A stretch of 64,000 nt of DNA from Chrysomallon squamiferum (lineage: Eukaryota > Animalia > Mollusca): contig CM022679.1 in the NCBI GenBank assembly GCA_012295275.1, forward strand, positions 31,496,001 through 31,560,000. Reading direction: 5' to 3'. Within the stretch, counting starts at the first letter, position 1; every line of letters starts with the position of its first letter. Position numbers and translations under genes: made by a program. Positions 32,546 through 64,000 of the stretch are shown here, piece after piece. The notes beneath the pieces were generated by a model that saw only the letters and a list, made by a program, of their open reading frames with translations, was not told where the DNA came from and did no database searches.

Positions 32546-34587
32546 CTAATTTTATATTTGCACTGCAAAAACCTGCTCACATCCCTGAGTGCTGGTTTTG
32601 AATTTTACCATGCTCTGCAGAAACATCCAGTTATTTAATATAACAAAGAGACAGAAATATTTATTCAAATATTATGAAACTCATATTAATTTGATTCTTA
32701 CTATTATAATCCGCTTCAAAATTATATTGAAAATTCATTATTTCTAGAAAAATCATATTAATGGAAGTGTATCTATCAGCAAAAATAAATTTATTTTAAT
32801 AGCTTATTATTATTTGATTTGATTTGAAATGGATTTGATTCAGATATAATTCTATTACCTAACTCACAGAAGATACACATAAAAATTATTTTCACAAAAA
32901 TAACATTTATTCAGATGTTATTACTGTTAATAACAATGAAATCATACTAATTCAGTGTGTTGTTATCAAGAATAGAAAAGCTACTGAAATGGGAACTTCA
33001 AAACATTTAATAATAATAAAATAAAATAAAAAATAAAATAAATAAAAATATCAATAATAAAAAAACAATATAAATATGTATTTTATATGTCTGTGTATGT
33101 TATATAATGTTATCAGTGGCTTGAGCAAAATACTATAAATTAAAACAATATTATCTCCCTGCACAAACTTATTAATACAAATACAGTAACAATCAGCATA
33201 TATTCACTTGTATATTATTACTAAGAGCAGATTAATCCACATACACTATAACCAGAATCAAACTACTGTTGATTAATATTATTATTATTATTATTATTAT
33301 TACCAATTAAAATACCAAAAATAAATATTGTGGTTGTCAATTGAAAATTAACTCCATGAAATATAATTACAAATTTTTGCATTTTAATTATCAGCACAAA
33401 AATCTGATTAATTCTAAAAATAGTGCAACTGAGTGCAATTAATATTTTAGCCAACCGTTTAAAAGTCACTTTAACAGTAAATGAAATGCAAAATGTTGTT
33501 CTTGGACAAACTTTTAATTGTTATTTATATCCCGATCCTGTCAAGTGAAAAAAAGTGTGACCTACTGTGGAACACTATCTAATTGTTTTTTAATTTTTGA
33601 CTGTTACCATCATTATAACTGACATTTAATATTATGACAAAAGATATAATAAAATGTTTTGAATCCCACTGTTGTAGTTTACATACCACTAGCTTGTGTA
33701 TGAAGGATTGTTTTATCAGCACCTTGTCAATCAACATTTTTTTTCAACATTTATTTTGAAATTGTTTGAAGAATGTTTTTTTTATTTTTATTTTTTTATT
33801 TCTCATTTATTATAATTTTGTTTTAATCTTAATTTAATTTTATTTAATTTAACATTTATTCTCTTTTTATTTATTTCATTTTATTTATTATTATTTTGTT
33901 GTTGTTTTGTTTTGTTTAAGGTCGAGCCAGTTTTTTGTGGATGATAGCGGAGGGTACACATCAATAGATACACTGGATTCTTCAGATCCAGTCAAAATGT
34001 CTCAGAATGAAACTTTCACAGGGACCAAGTCAACAGCAGCAGCAACAACAACAACAACAACAACAACAACAAGAGCATCAGAAACGATGGAGGGGGAATA
34101 TGCTGAGATTGGTGAAGCTTACTTGTCTCAAGAACGCAGCAGTACAAAAACAAAAACAAAAACAAACAACAATGAAAACGAAACGAAAAATGCTTCATTT
34201 TCAAAGCCGTCAAACAGTGGCTTGGTTTCAGAATATGCACCAGCTGACTTGTTAACAGAAGAAAACTATAGTGACGTGGTGTCAGCAGAAGAGCCCAAAC
34301 CTCACAGCCCTGCAGTGACAGATTTGTATGCCTCGGTGAACAAAGAACAGAAAAGAAAGGACAGTGCCGAAGACTCGACTGACGAAGTCCTCAGCCTCTT
34401 CGACAAGTTAGAGTTCACGAAACCAGCACCACTGATTCCTCTGCAGGACGAGGACTACAAACCTCTCCGCGATCTGAAACAGTTCCTTGCCAACAATGAA
34501 GACTTGTGTAGACGGTCTTACAACATTGTGCCCCAGGGAGCTGACCCAGTGCTTCAGCTGAAAGAGATGTTAAAAGAAATAGGATAA
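30002..34587 (+). CDS. PH-domain adaptor-like protein with a tyrosine-motif-rich disordered tail (335 aa)
   Basis: Exons 30002-30064, 30279-30347, 30638-30760, 31166-31251, 33921-34587 join in frame. PH pattern: GYLEK, KYWCML, FEIV, HIFTALSPEECSTWIQKL. Tail motifs YTSI, YAEI, YSDV, YASVNK, YKPL, YNIV. Confidence 0.85.
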
Positions 34588-36844
34588 GAAGTGGAGCTGT
34601 TTGTCAACAGGCTGCAGTAATATCCAACTTACAACCTGTTTTTTGATTCATTTTTCTTTTGTTATTTGGTTACAGATCTACATCTGTGTGTGTGCATATG
34701 CATGTTTGTGGTTGTGTGTGTGTTTCTGTGTATGTGTGTGTGGGTGGGTGGGTGGGTGGGTAAGTGCAGGTCTATTATAACTTCTGGCAATAAATATTTT
34801 TTCACACACAATTTTGAAGGCAAGCTGACGCACACGCATATATATATATATAACTCATATCATACATATTACATAGTTTATATATTTGCATGGATACCTG
34901 ACTCACATTAAGAACAATCATTAGCGTTATGAACAGAGAAGACCTTACAGCCTGTGATTTAAAATATTAGTGTTTTATGAGGAATGATTTTCTTTCAGTT
35001 ATTTCATGCTTTCTGTTATGCTGATGATTCACTGCAGCAAATGTGACATTAGTATCATATTATTCTTGTTAGTAAAGAAATGTTTCCAGCCTGTAACATG
35101 TAATAGAAAAAATACCAGAGAACATGTCATAGACAGAAAATCATTCTTCTTCGTGTTTGTGTAAAACGTTCAGGTTTACACTTTGTGTAAACATTTGTTG
35201 ATAATGTTTTATGTAAAATGTGTTCCAGTTTCAAAAATGTTAGAGATGTTACTTTATATAAAAAAGTTTCCGATTCAAACTGTGTTAAGGATGTTATGTA
35301 CTGTCTTTTATGTAAAATGTGTTCAGTCATAGTTTATGTAAAAAACTATTCTAATTCAAGCTACATTACACAGAATGTGTTCTCAGTCATAGTTCATGTA
35401 AAATAAATTCTGACTCATACATTTGTTTTTATTTATAGATAAAATAGAAATTTGTTTAATCATTCAGTGTGGACTATTGATTGCAATCAGCCAATCAATC
35501 AAAAGTGTAGTGCAGACAGATTGCACATGATTCAGAAATTCAGTGCAGGCCATCAAAGTAAGGTAGACACCACAAATATATTCTTTTGTATTGTGCAACA
35601 ATTGTTCATGCAGTTATGCAAGGTGCACCAACTTATATACTATATATATAAAGTATACTCAGTATATATACCAAAATAAATATTTTTAGAATTTTTTAAT
35701 ACAGGTAAATTATTTTGACCTGGTTATTTTAAAAGTAGCTCGCAATGTGAAAAAGGGTTGGACCCCTCTGCTATATAGTTTGTTACTTTTTATTTTTAAA
35801 TTGCATTGTTATCAAAATTGTGTTTTATAAAGCTTACTTAGATTCTTATCTTATTGGAGAGGTGACTAAGGCTCTGTATATTTTTATGTGTGTGTGTGTG
35901 TGTGTGTGTGTGTTAGGATAATAGAAAATATTTATTCATAAACTATATAGTACATTTACATAATTATTTGGTACTGGAATAAAAACCTACAAATTTTTTT
36001 TTTTTTAAAGCAGTATATTTTATTCAAACTATAAATATATACTTTGACTGGCATGACAGAAATGCCCCCCCCCACACACACATACACATACCCCCACACA
36101 CACACTGTTATAAATGTTACCTTCAAAGTATTACCATAAATATGGGGTCCAGATAATTGACATATCCTACTAATAAGATACTAACAGATAAGGAAACTAT
36201 TTGTTAAAATGCTAATTTTGTTCAGGTATTAGCCATTTAACCTCAGATTTATTTATTTATTTATTTATTTGGAGTTTTTTATTTTTCTCATAAATATAAG
36301 TGTTCTAAAAGTGTTTAATTTCATTTTGTGTGTTTGTGTGTGTGTGTGTTTGTGTGTTTCTATGTGTATTAATGTGTAAATGTACACATATTCAGTATAT
36401 CTCATGAATCTAAATGTCTGCAGTTATTATTTATTAGTGTTTTGTTCATCATTTATGAACAAGTAAATTTTGTAATATATTGATACCACAAGTAAATGGC
36501 CATGAGTGAATGCTTGTATACAGACTACATTCACTTAGACTCCATGAAAAATGTTGTTTATCTTCTTTTTAATTGGAAGAATTGGATAAGGCCAGATGGG
36601 TAATCTTTTTATTTTAGTATTGTTTTTAAAAACTGTTTGTCTATTTGTGAATAGAATCATGTACTGAATGGTAACTGATCATTATCACTGGTATCTCTTA
36701 CTGTCATGAACAGTCACAGGTATAAGGAGGTGCAGTTTTATTAGTTTTGAAAGCAACATGTTGGTAATAAAAATACAAAAAATATGATAAAGTATGATAA
36801 ACAACATATTTCTTTTAGCAGTCCTTAGTAAACTGTCAAAAAGA

Positions 36845-38252: not shown

Positions 38253-39962
38253 AATTTCCCTTAGACTTAATGTATTAATCTGTAGTGTCATTACTAATGT
38301 TTTTAAAAAAAGAAAATATGTATTTATTTATTTTTAGTATGAGCAGTAAAGGGGAGTAACTCCTGTTTTAAGGAATGTCGAAAATATATTTCTAAAGAGA
38401 ATATTAAATTAACGGTCGAAGGGAAATAATTCATGACGCATAAAGAAAACAAGAGTTATTTCCCGTAGACTGTTAAATATTAATCTGTAGTGTCATTTCC
38501 AATGGTATAATTATTATTTTTTTTTTATAATGGATGTATCTATTTATTTTCAGTGTGAGCAGTAAATTTACGATCTAAGGGGAGTAACTCCTGTTTTAAG
38601 GAAAGTCGAAAATGTAATTGTTTAGAGAATATTAAATTAACGGTCAAGGGGAAATAATTCTTGATGCCTAATCAAAACAAGAGTTACTTCCCCTAGACTG
38701 TTAATTTGCCATTTCCATTTTTTTTTTTTTTTTTTTTTTTAAATTATAGATTGATTTATTTTCAGTATGAGCAGGAAATTAATGATTTGAGGGGAGTGAC
38801 TCCTGTTTTAAGGACAGTCGAAAATATATTTCTAAAGACTAAAGAGAATATAAAATTAACGGTCTAAGGGAAATAATTCTTGAAGGATAAAAACGAATTA
38901 TTTTCCGTAGAGTGTTAATGTATTAATGTGTAGTGTCATTTGCAAGGCTTTTTTTTGAAAAAAAGAAATTTGATATATTTATTTTCAGTATCAGCAGTAA
39001 ATTTACGATCTAAGGGGAGTAACTCCTGTTTTAAGGAAAGTTGAAAATATATTTGTAAAGAGAATGTTAAATTAACGGTCAAGGGGAAATAATTCCTGAT
39101 GCCTAAACAAAACAAGAGTTATTTCCCTTAGACTGTTAGTATATTAATCTATAGTGTCATTTCAATTTTTATTTATTATTATTATTTGTTTTTATATATA
39201 TATTTTTTTAAATTATGGATTTATTTATTTCCAGTATTAGCAGTAAATTTACGGTCTAAGGGAGTAACTCCTGTTTTAAGTAAGGTCAAAAATTAATTTC
39301 TAAAGACAATATTAAATTAACGGTCAATGGGAAATAATTCTTGATGGCTAAACAAAACAAGAGTTATTTCCCTTAGACTGTTAGTATGTTAATCTATAGT
39401 GTCATTTCCATTTTTATTTATTATTATTATTTGTTTTTATATATATATATTTTTTTAAATTATGGATTTATTTATTTCCGGTATTAGCAGTAAATTTGCG
39501 GTCTAAGGGAGTAACTCCTGTTTTAAGTAAGGTCAAAAATTAATTTCTAAAGACAATATTAAATTAACGGTCAATGGGAAATAATTCTTGATGGCTAAAC
39601 AAAACAAGAGTTATTTCCCTTAGACTGTTAGTATGTTAATCTATAGTGTCATTTCCATTTTTATTTATTATTATTATTTGTTTTTATATATATATATTTT
39701 TTTAAATTATGGATTTATTTATTTCCAGTATTAGCAGTAAATTTACGGTCTAAGGGAGTAACTCCTGTTTTAAGTAAGGTCAAAAATTAATTTCTAAAGA
39801 CAATATTAAATTAACGGTCAATGGGAAATAATTCTTGATGGCTAAAAAAAACAAGAGTTATTTCCCTTGGACTGTAAATGTACTAATCTATAGTGTCATT
39901 TCCATTTTTTTTTAATTATTATTATTTTTTTTATACAAAATTATGCACTTATTTATTTTCAG
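38253..39962. repeat. Tandem satellite, about 7 units of 212-247 bp, each with an internal inverted repeat
   Basis: The GCAGTAAA anchor (one variant) recurs at 38343, 38559, 38771, 38994, 39240, 39487 and 39734. Units carry AAGGGGAGTAACTC, AAGGGAAATAATTCTTG and CAAGAGTTATTTCCCTT. Confidence 0.95.
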
Positions 39963-40899
39963 TATTTTAGTATATAATAGCTTATAAAAACTACATTATT
40001 GGTCTGATAAATAAATTATAAAACATAACAAATTTGATTTTAGACATGCAATCGCTGAAGTAATTATCAATGACGAGTTAGACTTATATACATAATAGCT
40101 TTTACACCTTCATTTCAAGTGACTGAAAGAGAATGAGATGAGAATACAATCTGTTTTAAAAATCAGCCAAAATGATTTTCAATCATTACATTGCTGTCTT
40201 GGTTATAAACAAATACTAATAATCATAATTAACAAACAAATAAATAAATAAATAAATAAATAACAAAAAACATATGAAAATTTATTGAGATATAAATAAG
40301 TATACACTTGAATTATATATGCAAAAGAGAAAATTCTAATTAAAGAAAAAAAAAATGAATGAAATAAAAATATAAAAAAGTAAAAATAAAATAAAGATAA
40401 CGAACTTTTACTCCAATACAAATTACTTTTAACTTAATATAAATCAAAAATATAATGCAATGTACCCTAGCTAGATAAATAAATATTAAACATGTGCTAA
40501 CAAACATGCTATTTTAACAACATAAATTTATAATCTAACTTTTTGAACTATGATATTTTCTCAGTTCATAAATTTTACTGAGTTTAATGTACCAAAGGTG
40601 AACAGTCCCCCAGTAGCTCATTTTCAAATATGAGTTTCCTGTATTAGCCACACTGAGGTGGGGGTATCATCACTCACCAGGTGACTCCTTGTTGCTGCAT
40701 TTAAGGTACATTAAATAGTAATAATTTTTAAATGGTGAGGAATGAATGATCCTAACAAATAATTATAAAATAAACCTAAGTATTTTCATTACACCATGCA
40801 AGACAAAATGGATACCAATATTTCTTTTAAATTAAGACTAAACAAAATTTTAGTTTTATATTTATTTAGTTTCTAATTATTAAACAATAAGGAATATCA

Positions 40900-44084: not shown

Positions 44085-44266
44085 GTTACACACACGACTG
44101 TTATTCATCAGTAATTCAAACGGTAAACACGAATTTAGTAAAGTGGACATTTTCATAAAGAGGGCACTCAGATACAAACACTGCAAAAAACTGCAATATG
44201 TCGTGGATATGGAAGGATTATCATGAAAATTATTAACACTGAAATAAAAATATCACTTTAATAAAC

Positions 44267-44314
<48 letters not shown>

Positions 44315-45500
44315 TTTTCAAAACGACTTTCCTGCTTTATATCAATTATTATTAGTAGTATCAAAGGTTTAATCAAAGTAGGATATATTAATATACTTTC
44401 TATATACTTTTCTGGTCAGTGTTTATGAACTAGATATAGTGTAAATGTCAGTAATTTATATGTTACAGTTTGTTTAACAATATTTAAACTGTTGTAATAA
44501 TTTACATGTCAACGTTTCAGATTTTTCTTAACGTCACTGTAGTCTTGTTGAAAGTACAATAATTAAAAAACAAAACAAAACAAAAACTATATCATAATAA
44601 TTTTAAGAAAACAATACAACAGAATGATTAAATGTTATATGAAATCTGGATCATATTAAAACTGTTATTTTGATTATATATCAACATTTGTATGTAGCTT
44701 TACTTTCAATTATGTGAATAGGGGTTCACCATTTCCAGTTTATATATGTTTTAGTTGTTTACTTTTTGTACACCAGTGTCTGTCATCAAAATTATAACTA
44801 AATTAATCTTTGACTATAATAATATCTAGAGACTGAATAAATATTCATATTTCACATACTATTATTAAAATGATAAAAAAAACGAACACCAAAAACCCCA
44901 TCTAAAAAAAAACCCCACGTACAAAACCAACAAAAAACAAACAACAAAACAAAGAAAAAGAAAAAAGAAAAACAACCGAATATTCATAGTCAATACATTT
45001 ATAGTATTATTACATTTTAATATCTCATAAACATTCTTATATTACATTTCACATTCATTATCTAGATACACAGCTGACTGAAATTCCAAAAAATTAGTTG
45101 CAGTCTATTTATGAAGTAATAATTTATTTTAACAATTATTTCCTAATTACTTTGAAAAATCAGAATAGGTAGATTTTATATTAACTATACTAGAACTTCA
45201 GGAGAAAAGGGTAAGCTGAAAAGAAAAAAAAAAAACAACCATGAACTACCTAAAATTTAACAGTTCAGAAAATCTTTTGCGTACCTATAAATATAAAATA
45301 AAATAAACAAAATGAAAAGTAAAATGAATAAAATAAAATAAAATAAAATATCATAAAATAAATAAATAACAATTAAGTCAGATAAAACTTCAGGAATATG
45401 AAGGAAATACAATAATTATGATATTTTGCATATGTTTAAAGTATCACAGTGTGGTAGATTTTTGTTAACAGTAATGAAGAACGGTAAAAATGTATAGATG

Positions 45501-45535: not shown

Positions 45536-46178
45536 TTGTATAAATATATATATGTGTACATATATAAACATCTATTTATGTATGTATCTAGCAATAACTA
45601 TAAGAATGATAATAATAAGGAAAATTAAAATTAATACAGTTGCAAAGAAATCATGTATTTTTTCTACAGAACTGTAGCTCATAAAAACTATTATTTACCC
45701 TAACACCGAACTGAATATTTTTTTCTCCCTAATTCATCTGTTGTAATCAGTAAAGTATAATTTTAAAAATTTCCTTCCTCCTTTATGTCAGTTATTACAA
45801 AAATTTCAAAGGGTTTAATCAAATCAGAATATAGTCATTTTCTATACAAGTTTCGTCTGATTAAGTTCAACATATGGCTTAAATGTCAATAGTTTATACG
45901 TTCAAGCTATTTCACTACTATTATAACAGTCAAAGTTATACAAAGTAGAATGTATACTTCAGGGACAGTTTATCTAGGAAAAAGACAGAGTCAGTAGATT
46001 ATTTGTTTCTGTTTATCTACGAATATTTTAAAAATTAATTTGCATGTTAACGTTTCAGATTTTGCTTGACTTTTCAGAGGTCATATTAAAACTCTTTTAC
46101 AATAAGAATTTATATAAAAAAAAAGAAAACCAAAGAAAAAAACTTACAGCAATTGCATTGCATGTTACTAAAACAATT

Positions 46179-47513: not shown

Positions 47514-48171
47514 ATGAAAGTATTTCAGCTCTCAGTTGTAATGTTTCTTCTGTTGGTGCTTAATTCATCTCCGATATTAGCTACTGTTACGTATTCAGAA
47601 TGTGTGGAAAAATGCAGGTAAGTCTACAATCGGCTTAACAGGTTCAGTAATTAGAAGTAATTTGTATCAAAAGCGAATCTTCGATCACGTTAAAAAAATG
47701 TGAAAATATTGTAACACCATTTCTCTTGCCTATTACATATATTATATATTCAGTTTATCACTTCTACACACTTTAATAGTAGTATGAAAGCTAGTAAAAC
47801 AGATAATATTGAAGATTCTGTAAATATAGATGTTTTATAAGGTATATAATATAAAAGAAAAATCTCTATCACGTTCGTATTTTATTTTTTATTTTATTAG
47901 TGGTTTCTTGCCAGATCCTTCGTAAGTATCATTTTATTATTATTCTATTATTCTATTAGTCTTTAAACTGCGTGTAAAACCCAACACACTACTACTATTA
48001 TACTAGTAAAACCCAACACACTACTACTATTATACTAGTAATACTAATACCACTACTACAACCTTCAGTATTATTAATATTACTACACTGCCAATACAGT
48101 ATATTATACTACCACAGCATTACTACCATACTTCTATTATACTAACAAATATTGCTGCTATTGCTATTGCT

Positions 48172-48212
<41 letters not shown>

Positions 48213-49564
48213 GCTAACATTATTATTATCATTAGTAGTAGTAGTCCCATCACTATTAAATATAATTCTTTCAGATTAACTGTACTCTATAGTATCACTA
48301 CATTACTTCCACACTACTACCATTTCTACCATAGCTACTACTTTTACACTAGTACTATAATATCCTGTATTAGTGCTATTGCTATTACTGTTATAATGCT
48401 GTTACTATTAATATTATCACTTCTAATGGTGGTTCTTTCAGATTAACTGTAAGGCAAAGTGATATATGTATACATTATTAAAATACTTTATACTGATTGT
48501 TGATGTTCTGTATATCATCACTGGCCACATTTTTCAGGAAATGCCCAAAATGCTGTGCTGATGTTGAAGAGATTGGAAGTAAGATGAATTTTATTTTCTT
48601 AAAGAATTTTACACAGGCACAGGCACAGACAGACACGTACATACGCTGAGGCTAATGTACTCTCACATACACACACACACGTATATATGTTTTTTACAGA
48701 CATAGACATGGACATACAGAAATGAACAAACACGACTGTTATTCATTGTAAATGATTTTAGTAAAGTGAACAGTTTACACGAAGTGGTCATTCAGACACA
48801 TACATACGTACATATATATATATATATATATGAATCTGCAGATCCTGTACATACGTATGTGATGTTGCATATATTTTAGAGAATATAATAATAAAAATAT
48901 CTCCTCGTTCAAGCTTTTGCTGGTATTCTGAAAGTTTCGATTATGTATGTATCATTTGCATGAAATTTCACCAATTAAGAATCATAAAATCACCAATTCA
49001 AAAGAACAGCAGTAACATTAACAGTAATTATAAACATGATAATAACAATAACAGTATAATAATAATAATAAGATCCCAGCTATAACAACAAAAACAATAA
49101 CAATAATTATAATTTTATTTTAAAATAAGCCCAGTTATATCATTTTAATAAGAATCTCCATTTTTTTTCAAACATCTCTGCCTTCGAAACCAAATTAGAC
49201 CAATAGCTGATCACATTGTTTAGCTATAGTCATAACATCCCAAATATTTAGAATAAAGTATATGGTAGGACAAATATTACTATTATCATTAAATTATTAT
49301 ACCACTACAGCGATTTGAAAAGATGTGTGTGTGTGTGTGTGTGATAAATGCATTATAGAGTAACTGGGCTTTCTCATAGTAAATATTTTCAATTGTTAAA
49401 GAACGTTATAATGTCGCGAATATTTATTCTTATTTAATGAAGATTTATTAGAAAGGTTACTTAATTTAGTAAAAAACAAAAGTAATAAATAAAATGTGTA
49501 TATGTGTGTGTGTGCGTGCGTGTGTTTCATTTAATAACAATAACAACAACAACAACAACAATAA

Positions 49565-49595
<31 letters not shown>

Positions 49596-49920
49596 AAGAA
49601 GAAGAAGAAGATGATGAAGAAGAAGACAAAGACGAAGATACAGAAGAAAAGAAGTATAAACATTTTTTAATTCAGTACAATCGTTAACATATTTTGTTTC
49701 CTGCAAAATATGCAATATTAGTGAATCATATTATAAAAATTATTAACACTGAAAGAAATACATCACTTTAATAAACCTCATTTTAAATACTTTTCTGGTC
49801 AGTGTTTATGAAGAGAAATAGTGAGTAAATATGAGTAATTTATATCTTACAGTTTAACAATATTATAACAATTGTAATCATTTATATGTCAACGTTTCAG
49901 ATTTTTCTTTACGTCACTGA
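47514..49920 (+). CDS. Small secreted Cys-rich peptide precursor (61 aa predicted)
   Basis: Exons 47514-47617, 47901-47921 (21 nt), 48538-48578, 49901-49920, all GT-AG. Translation MKVFQLSVVMFLLLVLNSSPILA-TVTYSECVEKCSGFLPDPSKCPKCCADVEEIGNFSLRH*. The hydrophobic signal peptide is clear; the last-exon assignment is inferred from phase. Confidence 0.75.
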
Positions 49921-49969: not shown

Positions 49970-50289
49970 AAGCTTGCATATAAGCTGAAAAAATGGTGGA
50001 CATAAGCTCAAAGATGTTTCAGCATATAAACTACCGAATGAGCTGCATTCTTCAAGTTAGTCGCATCTTCAATGGAACATTTAAAGCATTTGACAAACAC
50101 ATTAATCTTGCAAACTAAAAAGAACGTAAGTCTGGTGAACGAAAAGCGGAGATAATTCTGGGTTTAGTTTTGTTATGGGGAGGAAGGTATTTCACGTGTT
50201 CCTCTTCGTGGTGTCGGTCCCGGAATAGGCCGGGTTTGCTGATAGAGAGATGTGTACTGCTGCAGCACGAGGAGGTGGTTCAGGTCTCC
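49970..50289 (+). mobile_element. Probable 5'-truncated retroelement 3' end with an (ACAT)n tail
   Basis: Interrupts the homology with 44540-44620. The GC-rich end has stems CCTCTTCGTG/CACGAGGAGG and CCCGG/CCGGG, followed by (CATA)n. Confidence 0.45.
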
Positions 50290-51585
50290 ATACATACATA
50301 CATATGACATAGATAAGACATACATATATGCTTACACCTATACAAACATATATACACACAGACACACATACATATATACACATGTACATTCAAATGTATA
50401 TATGTGTTTATATATATATACAGACAGATGTACATACATAGATACATATACATACATACAAACATATATACATACACTTTGTCAAGAAATGCACACTCAT
50501 ACACACACATCTATATACATATCTATACATGAATACATACATGCTTACCCTAATACAAACATATATATACACAGACACACATACATATACAGACATGTGC
50601 ATACATATGTGTATATCTATGCACACACATGTACTACATACATATATACATATACATACATACCTATATACACTTTTATGTTCTTTTTTTCTAATAAGCT
50701 ATAGGTAGTAAGATAGATAACTGTTCATGCATTTAAAATTCAATTATTTTACGTAATCTTCTTAGTAGCTGTTAAAATAGAGGCAGACAGACAGAGTGTA
50801 TGACAGATGTACAGATTAAAATATGTCAGTTTTCTTTTTAAGCTGTAACAATTTTAATATGTTAGACTGATTTATACTTTTCTGTCGTAGTACAGAATAA
50901 TATAATATTCAAATCTTTGATACAAAATATTTTATTACATTCGTACATGATTTTAAAAAGCTCGTGTAATCGATATCATAGATATTCTTCCAAGAAGGCT
51001 GTTGAATAACACAACTGTTTTTGATATTTTCACATGATATATATACATTTTATCATTAAAGTATCTCGACATTAAAGAAATTTAAAGGACAGAAAGACCG
51101 TGTGACAGATATAGAGATTAAAATATGTCAGATAACTTTCTAAGCTGTCATAATTTTAACATTTACTGCCAGATTTGTAATTTTTTGTCGTTGTAAAGAT
51201 TAATATAATATTCAAATGTCTGATACAAAATATGTTATTACATTAGTACATGATTATTTTAAAAGGCTCGTGCATTCGATATAGTACACTTTCTTCCTGC
51301 TAGTTTGTTGAATAACACTACTGTTTTCGGTAAGATATTTTCACATTTTATATATATTTTTTAATGATCCCGACACTTCTAATAAATTTCATGAAACAGT
51401 ATTCACAATCATTTAATAAGACAATGTGTTGGATTTGATAAATAATCATCCTATAGTAGATACTTCATATATTATAATAGTCATTATATTAATAAGCGTA
51501 AAAAGAAAACAAATGTATATTTTAATCACTAAAAAATATATTTATTTCTCTAAGAATCTGCATGTTTCAGTTGACCTGGTTTGCA

Positions 51586-54003
51586 ATGTCTGTACTGAAA
51601 CTGAAAATGTTTCTCGTCTTACTAATTTTGGGATCAGTGGTGGCCGTGTCAGCTGTTGAATGGGAACCTTACAAACCACTGTAAGATTTATTTTAGCTGT
51701 CTTCCTATGTGAATCCAAATGTAAATTATTTTATTTTGTAAGATTTATTTCTGTTCTTCTTACTCAATAAATATCAGACAAGGTTAGAAATTTCAAGACG
51801 AAGGATTCCAGATTCAGACTATTTAAATGTGTCTTTGTATATCCTATGCTCGCTGTTATTTACAAGTATATGTTATAGAGAAGGAACTAATTCCATTCAT
51901 ATTTTGTGTAAAAGGCTTTATTATATTATTATATATATTTCTTTTTTCCACATGTTTCAGTCCACCGTGAGTATAATTTATCATTACATGACATTCACAC
52001 AATATTTCGGTCCTGTATAAAGAAACATACTGTATCAAGTAAACTAATAGCATACAAACTAAAATTAGGAAAAACAATCTGTGAAATAGTGTTTCCTTCT
52101 AATCCAATAATAAAAAAGAATTAGAATTATTAAGAGTTGAGAATCAGTTTATGTTTCTCTTTCTTTTTCTGTCTTTCTTTGTTTTGTTTTCTTCCACAAC
52201 CGTAACAACTTAGACCCAAGTGGAAATGGAAATGGAAAAAAATTAACGTGCTAATCAGAGCAAGCTGTTGTGAAGCACGTATTAGACCCAAGTTGTTATT
52301 TTACTAAATTATACTCATATCAGTCTTCACTTTTCAAAAACAGATTGATGTTTTATAAGTGAGTATCAATTTATCTCCACACAGAAGTGTGTGTGTGAGA
52401 GAGAGTGGCAATCAGCAGCAAAAACAACAAAATAATGATGATGATAATACTAAATTGTACTAATATCAGTGTTCACTTTTACAGATACAAAAGGAGTATT
52501 GTTAGGTGAGTACAGCCAAACCACCTACACCACAACTGCAACCGCCAACACAAAAAACAACATAATCAACAACAACAACAATAAGAATAATAATAATAAT
52601 AATAATTGATGATTCCGATGAATATTATATGTGTTGATGAATAGTATGTGGACAGCGATGAATGGTAATAGTAAGAAATGTGATAATTATTTCATTATTA
52701 TGTCTGCTGAAAAATTGATTTTTATTTTTATTTATGTGTTCCCTTCAGAGAATGGTATGTGTCAATTATCAGTAGGGAACTTAACTGTATTTACAACAGT
52801 ACCAAACAAATTCTTACATCAAAATTGAAGTAACAAATACACATCTGACCTGTTGTAATTTTATGCACTTTAATATAAATATTTTTAAATGAATTTTGAG
52901 AAGACTAACCATGAGATGGATCCAAATTTACTTTTAAGTTCCGATACTTATTATTTGATTGATAATTGTTGTTTCTCTTCAAAATATTAAACAAACAAAC
53001 AGCCTGGCAAGTCTCATTCTCTTAAATTGTAAGACAATTTAATTCAGCAGAAATATTATATATTGGGTCTTAGTTTTGTAAAACCAGAAACCATTAAAAA
53101 CAAGTCTCTTTGATATATTCGTAAGTTAATAGAGAGCACCCCACCTGGAAAAAGAACTGAATGGGGATTTCATGCAGTATGAACATAAGGGCATTAAAAC
53201 AGACGACAGTGATAAAAAATAAATTGTTAAAAAGGACCTCATTATATATGACAATGCTGATAATGCTGAATTCATTTTCTAACAAATGGACACTCAATCA
53301 GTTTATGCTTTTTAAACATTCACACTTCTTTTGCTGTAAATGTATAATGTTTTCAATCCCTGTCTAAGTGATGTCCATTATCCTTACTATTGTACTAATT
53401 CAGCACTTTTTTCTTTACTTTTATTTTACTATTTCTATCAGGCTTACATAAAATAATAATAGTAAAATAAAACGAAAAACTTAGTTTCCATGATTATTTA
53501 TCTTTATAAAACATGTACAGAGCTGGCTTGTAAGTCTCATTCTCTGAAACTGTAAGACAAATTACATCAGCAGAACTATTATACTGGGTTTTAGTTTTCG
53601 TAATACGCATAGAAACTATTAAATATAACTGTCACTGAATTGCACCGGTTCGGAATAAAATTATATTTTTTAATGTTGACAGGAGGCAGTTCCACCATTT
53701 AGAAATACAAGAATTCAGTTTCAGAAGACCGTACAAATGTCCAAGCTTATGATTTAAAAATCTCAAAAAATAAGTGAAACATTTCACATTACTGTCTAGC
53801 ACTTTGTAAATTCATACCACAAAGGTGAAGATATAATCACGTTTGTGAACAAACCCACGACAAAATCATACTCACATTAAATTTCCTAATTTATCCTTCA
53901 GACAGTATATATATATTTTTTTCCTTTAACAAAAGACAATAATGTATATTACAGTTTATCTAATGCGGACTATAACAAAATACATTATAAGAAAAAAAAA
54001 ATG

Positions 54004-54035
<32 letters not shown>

Positions 54036-54145
54036 AATAATAATAATTTAAAAAAATGATATTTAAATTTCTAGAAGATATACTGAATTTAAATTCAAAT
54101 CGTTTTTCTCCAAATCTTAAGAATATCATGTGTTCAGTTAAATAA

Positions 54146-54204
<59 letters not shown>

Positions 54205-54833
54205 CAACAACAATAATAATAATGATAATACTCTTACACAGCAGTTCAGATAAACTTAGTATTTTAAAGACGATGTCAAAATGAAGAGAAAAGATCGGAA
54301 CAGTTCGTTATCAATAGGTGTATAGAGGTCATCTCAAGTAAAATAAAACAAACATGTCTCCGAAATAAGAAAAAATGTAATTTGTATTTTCAGGAGAGGC
54401 GCACTACCTGTTATCTCTGATTTGCTTCACATCAGAAGTTGTAAGTGAAGTTATTTTTGTCTAAACTAATACAAGAAAGAAAATGTTTATTTTTGTGGAT
54501 ACTTATGTACGTAACTAAGCATATATCACTCAGTGAATGTATGTATGTATGTATGTATGTATGATTGTATGCATGCATATATGTATGTAGATGTATGCAT
54601 AAACGTGTGTATCTATGTATGTAGGTATGTCATCCATGTGTGTATGTGCATCTACGTATGGATAGATAGATAGGGACTGAAGAATGAATGGATATTGATA
54701 AAAATAATGTCTCATTTAAATTTCTAAATTCTTTAATTATTGCCGGCAGAGAGCTGATATTATGTATTTATTTACTGTTTTTCTCGTTTCAGTGTCAGGA
54801 AAAGAGGGAGAAAGCAAGATGAGTTCACGATAA
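51586..54833 (+). CDS. Micro-exon secreted peptide precursor, copy 1 (71-76 aa)
   Basis: Exons 51586-51680, 51961-51966 (6 nt), [52344-52358, 15 nt], 52485-52505 (21 nt), 52749-52754 (6 nt), 54394-54440, 54793-54833; non-coding exon donor at 51330. Translation MSVLKLKMFLVLLILGSVVAVSA-VEWEPYKPLPP[LMFYK]YKRSIVREWRGALPVISDLLHIRSLSGKEGESKMSSR*. Confidence 0.8.
52210..52293 (-). mobile_element. 60-bp retroposon 3' fragment with a 12-bp target-site duplication
   Basis: TTAGACCCAAGT at 52210-52221 and 52282-52293 flanks an insert that ends in (TTTCCA)n on the minus strand. The insert is absent at the paralogous site near 58815. Confidence 0.8.
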
Positions 54834-54939
54834 TAAAATATTGTGTGATGAAAACACTTAAGTGTCTATTATGAATCTGTTTAACCTATTTCTATCATTC
54901 TATTTAGATAAAATGTCATAAAATCATTAACGATTTAAC

Positions 54940-54944
<5 letters not shown>

Positions 54945-55009
<65 letters not shown>
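54945..55009. repeat. (CT)n microsatellite; longer paralog at 61571-61687
   Basis: Perfect dinucleotide run. Confidence 0.95.
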
Positions 55010-55013
<4 letters not shown>

Positions 55014-58000
55014 CATTTTCTGTAAGCATTATCAGTATTTTATTTTCCTAAATGTAAAATAATATATATTTAAAAGACAAAATTTTCACTGAATAACATT
55101 GACTCATCTTATTTATAGTGGACTTAAATGTTCTTCTGTTGTTTTTTCGAAACTGAATGTCCTCCAAATCAAGAAAAGTGATAACAATTAATTTTATACT
55201 TTCTTTTTCTTTCCCGAATCAAACTGGTCTGCACTTTGTAATTACAAACACAATGTCTATACATTGGAATGCAATGAAGCATCATATTTGTTAAACAGAT
55301 TGCTAGTGGCGCATTAATAGTGTCTAAAACTAAAACATATCTATATACAATATAAAAATAGTATAGCAGTTAGACTCAATATATCGGTAAATGATATTTC
55401 TCACTTTTTAAAATATAATTTGTAAAATGTTTAACGAGATTATTCTTATTTCCGAGAAAGTAACAATGCCGTTGACGAGATTTTAACGTATGACACCCAT
55501 ATATGCATGTGCATGTGCATGTATGTACGTATGTATGTCTGTATGTCTGTATGTATTTGTGAGATTAACTGCGTAAGGAGCCTATAGAAATAACTGTCTA
55601 ACAAAAAAATGTTTTGGATTAGTTGGATCATATTTATAATGACACGAATTACATACAACATACCTTGTTCCTTCTTGTTAATTACAATATTCGAGTAAAT
55701 GTCACTTTTGTAAATCAGTTTTTACATAGCACTGACTCCTTAATGAACAACATGCATGTATATAATCTATGCACGTTTATTTCTTTCTACATGTGAGTCT
55801 TTAATTGAGTGTATTCACCTGTCCCTTTAATCAATTATATAGCTAACTGTATATCTATGCATCTATGCATCTGTCTATCTGTCTATCTCTCTATATGTCT
55901 GTCTATCCATCTATCTATCTATCTATCTGTCTATCTGCATTTCTATCTAAATATATAATATATGCATAAATGGGTTGAATATGTCTCATAATTAATCTTG
56001 TAACGATTCATAAAACCTTTTTTATTTTAAATTTCTGAATAATAATCATCAAAAATAACAACTCACTAAAACTGATGTTCAATGACGTAAAAATACTGGT
56101 TTCAGTAACACATATAAAGTGATTAGTAAATATGACTCATGTTGAAAGATGTCGGTGGACGAAAACATTCAAATATGGTGCGCGTCAGTTTAACGACAGT
56201 ACAGGAGGCAGGGTAATGACCACCTACTCTCTAAAAACTAACTGAGTGAGAGTCAGACATGGAGATTACAATAAACCAAATATTCTATGATAAAAAAAAT
56301 AAATGTTTATTCTGAATATTCATTTGGTTTTTATGCTCTAGACTGAGAAAATATACGATTTGTTCTTTTTTGTGTGTTTTTTTTAAATTTATTTTTGTAA
56401 TATATACCATTACCACTATTAAAACATTAGATAAGACTAAAAACGCCTCTAATATTTAAAACATGAATATTAATACTGTCACAATTTTAATAACAGTAAA
56501 AATATCTTCTTTATTATGGCACCATAAAAATATGAAATTACCAAACATGACTAATTATTAAATAAGTGAATAAACTTTAATGACTTATGTCCTCAAAAAT
56601 AAAATAAAATAAAATTAACAAGTTCTCTCCATGTTGCAGGTCAGTTGAGGGTCACAACAAATCACAGTCATCATCAGGGCTCATAATGGTCATAAACCAT
56701 ATCAGCATTTTCCCTACACCTGTCAGATTTATAGTTCTGTACATTTCTATTTCTGACATTTACTGAATAATCCCCTTCCCTTGACATGCTGAATTTTCTT
56801 TCTTTATATCATTTCTACCTGTTTTTATTATTATTATTATTATTATTATTAATTTAGAGATCAATGTCAAAAAGTGCACACACATATCTATATACATATC
56901 TATACATACATACATATGACATAGATATGAGAAACATATATGATTACACCTATACAAACATATATACACACAGACACACATGCATATATACACATGTACA
57001 TTCAAATATATATATGTGTTTATATATATATACAGACAGATGTACATACATAGATACATATACATACATACAAACATATATACATACACTTTGTCAAGAA
57101 ATGCACACTCATACACACACATCTATATACATATCTATACATAAATACATACATGCTTACACCAATACAAACATATATATACACAGACACACATACATAT
57201 ACAAACATGTGCATACATATATGTATATCTATGCACACACATGTACATACATAGATACATATACATACATACATACATATATACACTTTTATGTTCTTTT
57301 TTTCTAATAAGCTATAGGTAGTAAGATAGATAACTGTTCATGCATTTACAGTTCAATTATTTTACGTAATCTTCTTAGTAGCTGTTAAAATAGAGGCAGA
57401 CAGACAGAGTGTATGACAGATGTACAGATTAAAATATGTCAGTTTTCTTTTTAAGCTGTAACAATTTTAATATTTTTGACTGATTTATACTTTTCTGTCG
57501 TAGTACAGAATAATATAATATTCAAATCTTTGATACAAAATATTTTACTACATTCGTACATGATTTTAGAAAGCTCGTGTTATCGATATCATAGATATTC
57601 TTCCAGGAAGGTTGTTGAATAACACAACTGTTTTTGATATTTTCACATGATATATATACATTTTATCATTAAAGTATCCCGACATTAAAGAAATTTAAAG
57701 GACAGAAAGACCGTGTGACAGATATAGAGATTAAAATATGTCAGATAACTTTCTAAGCTGTCAGAATTTTAACATTTACTGCCAGATTTGTAATTTTTTG
57801 TCGTTGTAAAGACTAATATAATATTCAAATGTCTGATACAAAATATGTTATTACATTAGTACATGATTATTTTAAAAGGCTCGTGCATTCGATATAGTAC
57901 ACTTTCTTCCTGCTAGTTTGTTCAATAACACTACTGTTTTCGGTAAGATGTTTTCACATTTTATATATATTTTTAATGATCCCGACACTGCTAATAAATT

Positions 58001-58196
58001 TCATGAAACAGTATTTACAATCATTTAATAAGAGAATGTGTTGGATTTGATAAATAATCATCCTATAGTAGATATTTCATATATTATAATAGTCATTATA
58101 TTAATCAGCGTAAAAAGAAAAAAATGTATATTTTAATCACTAAAAAATAAATTTATTTCGCTAAAAATCTGCATGTTTCAGTTGACCTGGTTTGCA

Positions 58197-60539
58197 ATGA
58201 CTGTACTGAAACTGAAAATGTTTCTCGTCTTGCTAATTTTGGGATCAGTGGTGGCCGTGTCAGCTGTGGAATGGGAACCTTACAAACCACCGTAAGATTC
58301 ATTTTAGCTGTCTTCTTATGTGAATCCAAACATAAATTACTTTATTTTGTAAGATTTATTTCTGTTCTTCTTACTTAATAAATATCAGACGAGGTTGGAA
58401 AATTGAAGACGAAGGATTCCAGATTCAGACTATTTAAATGTATCTTTGTATATCCTATACTCGCTGTTATTTACAAGTAAATGTTATAGAGAAAGAACTA
58501 ATTCCATTCATATTTTGTGTAAAACGCTTTATTATATTATTATATGTATTTCTTTTTTGCACATTTTTCAGAACACCGTCAGTGTAATATATCATTACAT
58601 GACATTCACACAATATTTCTGTCCTGTATAAAGAAACATACTGTATCAAGTAAACTAATAGCATACAAATTAAAATTAGGAAAAACAATCTGTGAAATAG
58701 TGTTTCCTTCTAATCCAATAATAAAAAAGAATTAGAATTATTAAGAGTTGAGAATCAGTTTATGTTTCTCCTTCTTTTTCTGTCTTTCTTTGTTTTCTTC
58801 CACAACTACAGCAACTTCGACCCACGTTGTTATTTTACTAAATAGTACTCATATCAGTGTTCACTTTTCAGAAACAGAAGTAGGGCTTATCTGTGTGTAT
58901 CAATTTATCTCCACACAGAAGTGTGTGTGTGAGAGAGAGTGGCAAACAGCAGCAAAAACAACAAAGATAATGATGATGATAATACTAAATTGTACTAATA
59001 TCAGTGTTCACTTTTACAGATTGAAAAAGAGTATTCGTAGGTGAGTACAGCCAAACCACCTACACCACAACTGCAACCGCCAACACAAAAAACAACATAA
59101 TCAACAACAAGAACAACACTAATAATAATAATAATAAAAATAATTGATGATTCCGATGAATATTATATGTGTTGATGAATAGTATGTGGACAGCGATGAA
59201 TGGTAATAGTAAGAAATGTGATAATTATTTCATTATTATGTCTGCTGAAAAATTGATTTTTATTTTTATTTATGTGTTCCCTTGAGAGAATGGTATGTGT
59301 CAATTATCAGTAGGGATCTTAACTGTATTTACAACAGTACCAAACAAATTCTTACATCAAAATTGAAGTAACAAATACACATCTGACCTGTTGTAATTTT
59401 ATGCACTTTAATATAAATATTTTTAAATGAATTTTGAGAAGACTAACCATGAGATGGATCCAAATTTATTTTTAAGTTCCGATACTTATTATTTGATTGA
59501 TAATTGTTGTTTCTCTTCAAAATATTAAACAAACAAACAGACTGGCAAGTCTCATTCTCTTAAATTGTAAGACAATTCAATTCAGAAGAAATATTATATA
59601 TTGGGTCTTAGTTTTGGAAAACGTATCAGAAACCATTAAAAACAAGTCTCTTTGATATATTCGTAAGTTAATAGAGAGCACCCCACCTGGAAAAAGAACT
59701 GAATGGGGATTTCATGCAGTATGAACATAATGGCATTAAAACAGACGACAGTGATAAAAAATAAATTGTTAAAAAGGACCTCATATGACAATGCTGATAA
59801 TGCTGAATTCATTTTCTAACAAATGGACACTCAATCAGTTTATGCTTTTTAAACATTCACACGTCTTTTGCTGTAAATGTATAATGTTTTCAATCCCTGT
59901 CTAAGTGAAGTCCATTATCCTTACTATTGTACTAATTCAGCACTTTTTTCCTTACTTTTATTTTACTATTTCTATCAGGCTTTACATAAAATAATAATAG
60001 TAAAATAAAACGAAAAACGTAGTTTCCATGATTATTTATATTTATAAAACAGGTACAGAGCTGGCTTGTAAGTCTCATTCTCTGAAACTGTAAGACAAAT
60101 TACATCAGCAGAAATATTATACTGGGTTTTAGTTTTCGCAATACGCATAGAAACTATTAAATATAACTGTCACTGAATTGCACCGGTTCGGAATAAAAAC
60201 ATATTTTTTAATGTTGACAGGAGGCAATTTCACCATTTAGAAATACAAGAATTCAGTTTCAGAAGACCGTACAAATGTCCAAGCTTATGATTTAAAAATC
60301 TCAAAAAATAAGTGAAACATTTCACATTACTGTCTAGCACTTTGTAAATTCATACCACAAAGGTGAAGATATAATCACGTTTGTGAACAAACCCACGACA
60401 AAATCATACTCACATTAAATTTCCTAATTTATCCTTCAGACAGTATATATATTTTTTTTACTTTAACAAAAGACAATAATGTATATTACAGTTTAACTAA
60501 TGCGGACTATAAGAAAATACATTATAAGAAAAAAAAATG

Positions 60540-60585
<46 letters not shown>

Positions 60586-61457
60586 TAACAAAAATAATAA
60601 TAATTTAAAAAAATGATATTTAAATTTCTAGAAGATATACTGAATTTAAATTCAAAGCGTTTTTCTCCAAATCTTAAGAATATCATGTGTACAGTTAAAT
60701 AATAATAATAATAATAATAATAAAAATAATAATAATAGTAATAATAATAATAATAATAATAACAACAATAACAACAACAATAATAATAATAATAATAATA
60801 AAAATAATAATAATAGTAATAATAATAATAATAATAACAACAACAATAACAACAACAATAATAATAATGATAATACTCTTACACAGCAGTTCAGATAAAC
60901 TTTGTATTTTAAAGACGATGTCAAAATGAAGAGAAAAGATCGGAACAGTTCGTTATCAATAGGTGTATAGAGGTGATCTGAAGTAAAATAAAACAAAAAT
61001 GTCTCCGAAATAAGAAAAAATGTAATTTGTATTTTCAGGAGAGGCGACCGACCTGTTATCTCTGATTTGCTTCACATCAGAAGTTGTAAGTGTAGTTATT
61101 TTTGTCTAAACTAATACAAGAAAGAAAATGTATATTTTTGTGGATACTTATGTACGTAACTAAGCATATATCACTCAGTGAATGTATGTATGTATGTATG
61201 TATGTATGTATGTATGTATGATTGTATGTATGTATGTAGATGTATGCATAAACGTGTGTATCTATGTATGTAGGTATGTCATACATGTGTGTATGTGCAT
61301 CTGAAGAATGAATGGATATTGATAAAAATAATGTCTGATTTAAATTTCTAATTTCTTTAATTATTGGCGGCAGAGAGCTGATATTATGTATTTATTTACT
61401 GTTTTTCTCGTTTCAGTGTCAGGAAAACAGCGAGAAAGCAAGATGAGCTCACGATAA
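58197..61457 (+). CDS. Micro-exon secreted peptide precursor, copy 2 (71-78 aa)
   Basis: Exons 58197-58291, 58572-58577, [58872-58892], 59020-59040, 59287-59292, 61039-61085, 61417-61457; non-coding exon donor at 57943. Translation MTVLKLKMFLVLLILGSVVAVSA-VEWEPYKPPTP[NRSRAYL]LKKSIRREWRGDRPVISDLLHIRSLSGKQRESKMSSR*. Some micro-exon splice sites are weaker (GTCAGT, GTGTGT, GAG acceptor). Confidence 0.75.
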
Positions 61458-61564
61458 TAAAATATTGTGTGATGAAAACACTTAAGTGTCTATTATGAAT
61501 CTGTTTAACCTATTTCTATCATTCTATTTAGATAAAATGTCATAAAATCATTAACGATTTAACT

Positions 61565-61689
<125 letters not shown>

Positions 61690-63699
61690 GCATTTTCTGT
61701 AAGCATTATCAGTATTTTATTTTCCTAAATGTAAAATAATATATATTTAAAAGACCAAATTTTCACTGAATAACATTGACTCATCTTATTTATAGTGGAC
61801 TTAATTGTTCTTCTGTTCTTTTTTCGAAATTGAATGTCCTCCAAATCAAGAAAAGTGATAACAATTAATTCTATACTTCCTTTTTCTTTCCCGAATCAAA
61901 CTGGTCTGCACTTTGTAATTAAAAACACAATGTCTATACATTGGAATGCAATGAAGCATCACATTTGTTAAACAGATTGCTAGTGGCGCATTAATGCTGT
62001 CTGAAACTAAAACATATCTATACACAATATAAAAATAGTATAGCAGTTAGACTCAATATATCGGTAAATGATATTTCTCACTTTTTAAAATATAATTTTG
62101 TAAAATGTTTAACGAGATTATACTTATTTCCGAGAAAGTAACAATGCCGTTGACGAGATTTTAACGTATATATGTGCATGTATGTATGTATGTATGTATG
62201 TATTTATGTATTTGTGAGATTAACTACGTACTGAGCCTATAGAAAAAACAACTGTCTAACAAAAAAAATGTTTTTTACAAGAAACCAAATATTATATAAA
62301 CCAAAGATAAAAGAAATACAGATTTATTCTGAATATTCATTTGATTTTTATGCTCTATACTGAGAAAATATATGATTTGTTCTTTTTTGTGTTTTATTTT
62401 TTATTTATTTTTGTAATATATACCATTACCACTATTAAAACATTTGATAAGACTAAAAACGCTTCTAATATTTGAAACATGAATATTAATACTGTCACAA
62501 TTTTAATAACAGTAAAAATGTCTTCGTTATTATGGCACCATAAAAATATGAAATTACCAAACATGACTAATTATTAAATAAGTGAATAAACTTTAATGAC
62601 TTATGTCCTCAAAAATAAAATAAAGTAAAATTAACAATTTCTCTACATGTTGCAGGTCAGTTGAGGCTCACAACAAATCACAGTCATCATCAGGGCTCAT
62701 AATGGTCATAAACCATATCAGCATTTTCCCTACACCTGTCAGATTTATAGTTCTGTACATTTCTATTTCTGACATTTACTGAATAATCCCCTTCCCTTGA
62801 CATGCTGAATTTTCTTTCTTTATATCATTTCTACCTGTTTTTATTATTATTATTATTATTAATTTAGAGATCAATGTCAAGAAGTGCACACACATATCTA
62901 TATACATATCTATACATACATACATATGACATAGATATATGAGAAACATATATGATTACACCTATACAAACATATATACACACAGACACACATGCATATA
63001 TACACATGTACATTCAAATATATATATGTGTTTATATATATATACAGACAGATGTACATACATAGATACATATACATACATACAAACATATATACATACA
63101 CTTTGTCAAGAAATGCACACTCATACACACACATCTATATACATATCTATACATAAATACATACATGCTTACACCAATACAAACATATATATATACACAC
63201 ATACATATACAAACATGTGCATACATATATGTATATCTATGCACACACATGTACATACATATATACATATACATACATACATACATATATACACTTTTAT
63301 GTTCTTTTTTTCTAATAAGCTATAGGTAGTAAGATAGATAACTGTTCATGCATTTACAGTTCAATTATTTTACGTAATCTTCTTAGTAGCTGTTAAAATA
63401 GAGGCAGACAGACAGAGTTTGTATGACAGATGTACAGATTAAAATATGTCAGTTTTCTTTTTAAGCTGTAACAATTTTAATATTTTTGACTGATTTATAC
63501 TTTTCTGTCGTAGTACAGAATAATATAATATTCAAATCTTTGATACAAAATATTTTATTACATTCGTACATGATTTTAAAAAGCTCGTGTTATCGATATC
63601 ATAGATATTCTTCCAGGAAGGTTGTTGAATAACACAACTGTTTTTGATATTTTCGCATAATATATATACATTTTATCATTAAAGTATCCCGACATTAAA

Positions 63700-63960
63700 G
63701 AAATTTAAAGGACCGAAAGACCGTGTGACAGATATAGAGATTAAAATATGTCAGTTATCTTTCTCAGCTGTCATAATTTGAACATTTACTGCCAGATTTG
63801 TAATTTTTTGTCGTTGTAAAGACTAATATAATATTCAAATGTCTGATACAAAATATGTTATTACATTAGTACATGATTATTTTAAAAGGCTCGTGCATTC
63901 GATATAGTACACTTTCTTCCTGCTAGTTTGTTGAATAACACTACTGTTTTTCGGTAAGAT
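63700..63960 (+). promoter_or_regulatory. Promoter and non-coding exon 1 of a third micro-exon gene copy (coding part beyond the window)
   Basis: Paralog of 51095-51335 with the TTTAAAAGG TATA-like box and an intact donor CG|GTAAGA at 63954. Confidence 0.6.
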
Positions 63961-64000
63961 GTTTTCAATTTTATATATATTTTTTTCCATAAATTTCATG

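Follow-up and report, generated by a model that had tools for sequence, protein, structure and literature searches.

Candidate tandem genes for a cationic secreted peptide with diverging micro-exons in a gastropod genome

Can coding exons of only 6 to 21 nt be credited as parts of a gene and, if so, what would such a gene be for? The question is raised by a stretch of 64,000 nucleotides of Chrysomallon squamiferum DNA (assembly GCA_012295275.1, contig CM022679.1, positions 31,496,001 to 31,560,000), called here the window, in whose positions all coordinates are given. By blastn self-comparison it contains two complete tandem units, A and B, and the beginning of a third. Each complete unit carries a predicted gene, invisible to the calling of open reading frames, in which a cassette of four micro-exons would be spliced between constant ends. 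The sequence patterns described below suggest recent tandem genes for a secreted cationic peptide, the micro-exons of which may have been diversified, likely under microbial selection. We regard this full account as evenly balanced between right and wrong; the A/B gene itself is very likely real.

Gene model of the tandem units

The initial annotation had placed one gene in each of a series of tandem units of 6-6.6 kb, and the self-comparison agrees with it. The units are the following:

50287-56898 (+): unit A, 6.6 kb
56899-62908 (+): unit B, 6.0 kb, without a 650-bp and a 72-bp stretch of A
62909-64000 (+): third unit, upstream region only; its coding exon 1 would fall past the end of the window

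Units A and B are about 3% diverged. The upstream regions differ at 14/682 positions between A and B, 17/682 between A and the third unit and 11/681 between B and the third unit; these three distinct units are more versions than two haplotypes would give. Contigs of four sequencing runs, X1 to X4, were compared with the window over 51300-53900, that is, over the gene without exons 6 and 7. The kind of run X1 is not on record, and this run may be the source of the window itself. The 72-bp insertion (52210-52281), present in copy A only, has an 11-bp direct repeat on both sides, and run X1 covers its core at a depth of about 66,000-76,000, whereas the surrounding sequence mostly lies at 400-2,500. 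It is a very high-copy short mobile element.

Splice sites were scored with a matrix trained on the 17 introns of the CNOT3 gene of the window, the weakest acceptor of which scores -1.6 and the weakest donor 3.2. The predicted exons of both copies are listed below, with scores where they are informative:

51290-51329 (+): predicted exon of the 5' untranslated region (UTR), start approximate; its donor (8.6) is the only one of at least 6 in the upstream region
51571-51680 (+): A, coding exon 1; 15 nt of UTR, ATG at 51586, 23-residue signal peptide plus 8 residues, phase-2 donor
51961-51966 (+): A, micro-exon 2, 6 nt; acceptor 8.8, donor 5.3; 2/6 bases differ in B
52344-52358 (+): A, micro-exon 3, 15 nt; weak acceptor; 8/15 bases differ in B
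52485-52505 (+): A, micro-exon 4, 21 nt; acceptor 5.4, donor 10.2; 5/21 bases differ in B
52749-52754 (+): A, micro-exon 5, 6 nt; acceptor 10.1, donor 7.3; same in B; middle of an R-x-x-R motif
53683-53752 (+): candidate alternative last exon, phase 2, 22 codons to stop; acceptor 9.0; 2/2 changes between A and B silent; suggestive only
54394-54440 (+): A, exon 6, 47 nt, phase 2 to phase 1; acceptor 9.0, donor 6.0
54793-54837 (+): A, exon 7, 41 coding nt to stop; acceptor 13.0; AATAAA at 54832
58197-58291 (+): B, coding exon 1
58572-58577 (+): B, micro-exon 2; donor GTCAGT, probably weak
58872-58892 (+): B, micro-exon 3; 21 nt via a strong acceptor, or 15 nt from 58878 (13.7 vs -1.3); donor GTGTGT, 4.1
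59020-59040 (+): B, micro-exon 4, 21 nt; strong sites
59287-59292 (+): B, micro-exon 5; acceptor GAG, probably weak; same base listed in run X1
61039-61085 (+): B, exon 6
61417-61461 (+): B, exon 7 with stop and AATAAA

As had been proposed, AG and GT stand at every boundary of the named exons, and the joined predicted exons of copy A give an open frame of 76 codons with phases 2, 2, 2, 2, 2 and 1. Since the micro-exons are in phase 2 and their lengths are multiples of three (3n), any of them could be added, lost or skipped in frame. The expectation that skipping keeps the frame held for 16/16 combinations of the four micro-exons, in A and in B. Both copies retain the start, the signal peptide, the stop and the AATAAA, which overlaps the stop codon. 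The donor at 51329 recurs at 57942 and 63953, being the sole donor of at least 6 in each upstream region, and this strong donor together with the acceptor at 51571 suggests an untranslated first exon. This short UTR exon would be spliced to the signal-peptide exon, and the precursor would be exported and cut after residue 23.

The predicted precursor of A has 76 residues, 23 in the signal peptide and 53 in the mature part. A Cys-free, basic mature peptide of about 50 residues had been forecast, and the predicted isoelectric points (pI) of 9.8 in A and 10.6 in B, with net charges of +4 and +8 and no cysteine, bear this out. The signal peptide is predicted from sequence features, namely a basic n-region, a hydrophobic core and a V-x-A cleavage site. 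The variable region is cationic, rich in proline and aromatic residues, and has an amphipathic stretch (best 11-residue hydrophobic moment of 0.8 over exons 4-6), in which it resembles linear host-defence peptides such as myticalins. The R-x-x-R motif is built over exons 4-6 in both copies, dibasic sites are found in the variable exon 4, and the downstream tail has no acidic excess.

Other splice-like sites are present in the span of the genes. The long intron holds more strong acceptors at 53442, 53521-53529 and 53683-53752 (+), from which two alternative last exons and a fifth, 9-nt micro-exon, the same in both copies, could arise. No convincing alignment was found between the candidate exon at 53683 and exon 6. 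A further AG lies two bases past the GAG acceptor of copy B (59289-59292, +) and could yield a frame-shifting exon 5 of 4 nt.

Divergence of the copies and growth of the cassette

Short stretches bounded by AG and GT are common. With loose thresholds and the CNOT3-trained matrix, the 64 kb contain 153 micro-exon candidates of 3-36 nt on the plus strand and 121 on the minus strand, a frequency that puts splice motifs alone at chance level. The called micro-exons of A and B stand out by their divergence: 15/48 of their bases differ between the copies, against 69/2,493 intron bases (microsatellites masked; Fisher p 8e-12), so that they have changed about 11 times as fast as the introns. In the three larger exons, 10/183 bases differ (p 0.04). 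Among 4,134 overlapping windows of 21 nt, 35 hold at least five differences, and 35/35 of these touch a micro-exon. When the 14 micro-exon candidates defined by the matrix in the gene span are compared, only exons 2 and 4 differ between the copies; exon 3 is missing from the 14 because its acceptor in A is weak.

Nearly all of this divergence alters amino acids. The micro-exon codons have 15 amino-acid-changing differences in 41 sites and one silent difference in 10 sites, and the signal peptide has one in 50 and one in 19, respectively. The proportion of amino-acid-changing differences (pN) is 0.366 in the micro-exon codons, 0.156 in the mature part and 0.020 in the signal peptide. When 11 exon versions are read in the three phases, internal stops are found in 0/11 in phase 2, which is the phase set by exon 1, in 2/11 in phase 1 and in 7/11 in phase 0. 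Random intron pieces are open in 74% of cases at 15 nt, 65% at 21 nt and 36% at 47 nt, and the exon versions are related, not independent, so that the stop-free phase 2 gives moderate support. Because the micro-exons are so much more diverged than the introns, nearly all of their changes are amino-acid-altering and phase 2 is the sole stop-free phase, the exons are credible. Given a real gene, diversifying selection on its micro-exons is probable.

Run X1 adds to the number of versions. Of its 121 differences, 40 were listed; 22 of these agree with B and the other 18 with neither A nor B. They include a third, stop-free version of exon 3, which is 7/15 bases away from A and 9/15 from B; the family therefore likely has further members.

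The cassette was enlarged by internal duplication. Upstream, exons 3 and 4 have near-identical flanks (p 0.0017 in a comparison with 600 background acceptors); on the donor side, 16/17 flanking bases agree between exons 2 and 3 (p 0.013 against 75 donors). This homology of the flanks shows that an exon was duplicated together with its splice signals and marks exons 3 and 4 as internal duplicates. Exon duplication would give symmetric exons with or without skipping.

The copies also differ in splice-site strength. The donor of exon 2 in B scores 1.3, against 3.2 for the weakest CNOT3 donor, and three of the micro-exons of B (2, 3 and 5) have a weakened site. At exon 3, the strong 21-nt acceptor of B is absent in A, which keeps the weak 15-nt acceptor only. 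Such differences mean that the copies probably differ in exon content as well as in sequence, and the weakened sites in B suggest that diversity may reside mainly between gene copies. On the predicted sites, gain or loss of exons between paralogues would be indicated as much as skipping within a gene. In the mechanism that we propose, the copies diverge through amino-acid changes concentrated in the cassette and through gain and loss of splice-site strength, so that every paralogue would yield its own peptide; a low level of skipping may supply extra variants.

Related gene designs, possible function and rival explanations

The criteria used here for flatworm micro-exon genes (MEGs) come from papers citing the original description. 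In MEGs, a signal peptide is followed by symmetric 3n micro-exons in series, paralogues stand in tandem, and the mature region evolves faster than the signal peptide (PMC4350168, PMC7653826). Most of their coding region is in very small symmetric exons and they are apparently restricted to flatworms (PMC4350168); the number of very short exons is 10-20 (PMC10526429). An operational rule used for tapeworms asks for 7 or more exons, of which half or more are 3n and shorter than 70 nt, in a run of at least 4 (PMC7653826). The A/B genes resemble MEGs in their predicted signal peptide, their symmetric 3n micro-exons, their tandem copies and the greater divergence of the mature region than of the signal peptide (pN 0.156 vs 0.020). 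On predicted exons, 3n micro-exons are 4/7 coding exons of copy A (4/8 with the UTR exon) in a run of 4, which places it at the threshold of the tapeworm rule; copy B is doubtful in this respect.

However, micro-exons amount to 48/231 nt (21%) in A and 54/237 nt (23%) in B, or 30-33% of the mature part, and not to most of the coding sequence. The A/B genes also have seven predicted coding exons, four of them micro-exons, instead of 10-20 short exons, and they belong to a gastropod, with no homology to MEGs detected. As no relation was detected, the layout is likely convergent. The initial annotation had proposed an independently evolved MEG-like system; what stands of this is a likely convergent, tandem and rapidly diversifying one, whereas the share of micro-exons in the coding sequence departs from MEGs. 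The symmetric micro-exon layout, taken there as the hallmark of schistosome MEGs, is a true likeness but is not exclusive to them, since other secreted proteins have similar genes.

For instance, vertebrate SCPP genes, such as those of ameloblastin and amelogenin, consist of phase-0 exons only, which can be duplicated, lost or skipped in frame (PMC6732285). They share with A/B a secreted product and same-phase introns allowing in-frame exon change, but they are vertebrate genes in phase 0 for mineral-binding proteins, whereas the phases of A/B are 2, 2, 2, 2, 2 and 1, and homology was neither to be expected nor seen. The SA8 genes of sea anemones are clustered secreted-peptide genes with 3-5 microexons and one highly variable exon (PMC10210398). 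The likeness to A/B lies in the clustering, the microexons and the highly variable exon sequence, although SA8 peptides are Cys-rich cnidarian venom peptides and those of A/B are Cys-free. Mussel myticalins are a Cys-free multigene family with a conserved signal peptide and a hypervariable cationic region rich in proline and aromatic residues; their genes have three exons, with the whole mature peptide in exon 2, a 5'-UTR exon preceding the ATG exon, and decaying copies, and the mature peptide (pI above 11) is followed by KR and an anionic extension (PMC5577615). The A/B genes, also from a mollusc, have in common with them the lack of cysteine, the conserved signal peptide, the type of hypervariable region, the predicted 5'-UTR exon and signs of decay in a copy. 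They differ in that the mature part is spread over seven predicted exons, with its variable part split among micro-exons. Very probably, the A/B genes form a real family of orphan peptides whose evolutionary signature is striking, and their design is a variant of one that recurs.

What the peptide may do depends in part on its host. The window is AT-rich (72% AT) animal DNA, and CNOT3, which flanks the tandem units, is a gastropod gene: an 18-exon model has 671/716 residues identical to CNOT3 of Gigantopelta aegis (93.7%), and a 90-residue query matched G. aegis at 93%, with Haliotis as the runner-up at 72%. This peltospirid snail lives at vents and harbours bacterial symbionts (PMC11871041). 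The host of the A/B genes is therefore likely a related snail, and presumably a symbiotic one too. The N-terminal 26-28 residues of the mature peptide, of proline, aromatic and basic character, may be freed at the R-x-x-R motif, and the released peptide may target bacteria at an exposed surface, for defence or symbiont control. We would put a microbe-facing role at about an even chance.

Several points weigh against the account given so far. All exon junctions of A and B are predicted only. The acceptor of exon 3 in A (-3.9) is under the weakest CNOT3 acceptor, and exon 5 is invariant between A and B, which leaves its splice sites as the sole argument for it. The acceptor at 53683 scores as high as that of exon 6, and the candidate last exon there makes the 3' end of the gene model not unique. 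A heuristic signal-peptide scan of the 64 kb, on both strands, gave two hits; it found A and missed both B and the neighbouring gene C, described below. With only 10 silent sites in the micro-exon codons, the ratio of amino-acid-changing to silent substitution rates (dN/dS) is poorly estimable. Compared with myticalins, the pI is lower (9.8-10.6), and both an anionic tail and an anionic pro-region are missing. Finally, intron bases up to 15 nt from the micro-exons differ at 9/120 positions, against 60/2,367 elsewhere (p 0.005), so that selection on amino acids alone is insufficient, and divergence reaches about 6% in introns 1-2 while the other introns stay at 0.6-2.4%; either gene conversion in patches or selection acting on splice strength must have a part in this.

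These flanks, three times as diverged as distant intron, and the more diverged introns 1-2 are also what decay would leave, either of copy B or of the whole cluster: the divergence peaks would then be gene-conversion patches among older paralogues or mutation hotspots, and some micro-exons would no longer be spliced. The weakened site in 3/4 micro-exons of B agrees with this, and last-exon remnants of gene C at 44521 and 46059 amount to birth-and-death turnover nearby. However, every exon combination is open in both copies, neither of which has lost its start, signal peptide, stop or AATAAA; no stop interrupts the third exon-3 version either, and micro-exon interiors are far more diverged than their flanks (15/54 vs 9/120, p 0.0006). 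We consider decay unlikely. Much less probable still is the absence of any gene, with chance splice-like motifs in a segmental duplication or haplotypes assembled in tandem. Loose micro-exon candidates occur about twice per kb and exon-1 queries found no homologue, but the divergence peaks fall on the called exons, the stop-free phase matches that fixed by exon 1, the three different units exceed two haplotypes, and gene C repeats the phase layout with strong sites.

Real genes could still vary their product in another way, with combinatorial skipping within each gene as the main diversifier, as in flatworm MEGs, and up to 16 isoforms per copy. All combinations are in frame, several sites are intermediate or weak, exon 3 of B has two in-frame acceptors 6 nt apart, and copy A falls within the operational MEG rule (PMC7653826). 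Against this, exon symmetry is also produced by exon duplication alone, no more than 21-23% of the coding sequence is in micro-exons, and strong selection on exon sequences implies their usual inclusion; substantial skipping within a gene seems doubtful to us, be it as the main diversifier or otherwise. The target of the peptide could likewise be other than microbes. Reproductive and pheromone proteins, too, typically combine a conserved signal peptide with rapid amino-acid change, a pattern that would fit gamete recognition or chemical signalling as well. Proteins of mucus or hard-part matrix are the other candidates. Matrix proteins are usually acidic, Gly-rich or repetitive in composition, whereas the variable part of A/B is cationic, rich in proline and aromatic residues, and has none of these features. 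Peltospirid hard parts do hold family-specific uncharacterised proteins (PMC11871041). A role in reproduction, signalling or matrix is, in our view, a tentative option.

If recent tandem genes for a secreted, diversified peptide are the right explanation, the locus shows how a micro-exon cassette is born (duplication of exon and flanks), diversified (by substitution about 11-fold faster than in introns) and pruned (through decay of splice sites in one of the copies), all of which bears on the origin of flatworm MEGs. Genes of this kind are invisible to open reading frame calling and hard for short-read mapping, so that such snails may hold unannotated, fast-evolving secreted peptides. Peptides of this family, if microbe-facing, would be candidates for the host molecules that manage vent symbionts. 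In its boldest form, a free-living, symbiotic vent snail would possess an independent MEG-like diversifier, in which positively selected, duplicated micro-exons vary by paralogue and by skipping on a scaffold common to A/B and the Cys-rich gene C, and the resulting pool of peptides recognises or controls bacterial symbionts. This combined picture is improbable as a whole.

Searches and neighbouring sequences

The homology searches for A/B used exon 1 only and are weak, because this query is mostly signal peptide. They gave no candidate among proteins of 28-91 residues, no match at E of 0.001 or less in 1.84 billion representatives, no Pfam family and no Atlas match. Patterns of exons 1 and 6 had no exact match in metagenome contigs. 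Five short motifs were absent from three supplementary files of PMC11871041, the sheets of which, as far as seen, give ids and scores and not sequences, and are hence uninformative. Among the open-access titles and abstracts that the literature searches listed, none mentions a gastropod gene of such design; subscription papers and closed preprint supplements could hold one. No RNA record was listed for 51500-55000. In RNA runs X2, X3 and X4, 10, 4 and 4 of 30 bins were covered, with no exon-exon joint, and the listed pieces fall only on the high-copy repeat at 52235-52280; as contigs show presence and not absence, this result says nothing on expression. A 55-nt DNA joint in run X1 that would delete exon 4 (side of 23 letters, likeness 85) was too weak and was not used.

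Upstream of unit A lies a predicted gene for a Cys-rich secreted protein, gene C:

47514-49920 (+): predicted gene C, Cys-rich, 23-residue signal peptide
47514-47617 (+): exon 1, with CxxxC, phase 2
47901-47921 (+): 21-nt exon, weak donor (2.9)
48442-48453 (+): optional 12-nt exon
48538-48578 (+): CxxCC exon, 41 nt, phase 2 to phase 1
from 49901 (+): short last exon

Its phase layout is that of A/B, with one or two 3n micro-exons, and the minimal model has an odd number of cysteines, five. A nominal likeness to A/B was found for the signal peptides (p 0.016) and the exon-6 region (p 0.023), and no significant likeness for the mature peptides (p 0.49), exon 1 DNA (p 0.14) or the last exon (p 0.62). 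A shared ancestry of gene C and A/B is suggested by layout and adjacency only; homology is not established. No homologue candidate of gene C was obtained among proteins of 33-107 residues, and its only Atlas matches were plant thionin-like clusters at 0.78-0.80, which is the chance level. Remnants like its last intron and last exon are present at 44088-44546 and 45756-46070 (+), with 85% likeness over 151 nt at 44398-44546. Beside these remnants there are AG..GT candidates of 9, 9 and 24 nt at 45202, 46278 and 46693. Remnants and nearby candidates are possibly decayed paralogues or UTR exons.

Other parts of the window contain the following genes:

124-873 (minus strand): IQ-motif gene, which we take to be CEP131-like
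5436-20908: CNOT3, complete gene, 18-exon model

In the CNOT3 model that matches the Gigantopelta protein, intron 13 begins with GC at 18446-18447 (+), and an in-frame GT donor is found a few codons downstream. Pieces of a further multi-exon gene occur at about 28600-34600 (+), including an open frame of 244 codons (33853-34587) that has no Pfam match. A minisatellite extends over 38254-39966, with a period of about 204-247 bp and about seven copies, the likeness among which is greatest at the right end.

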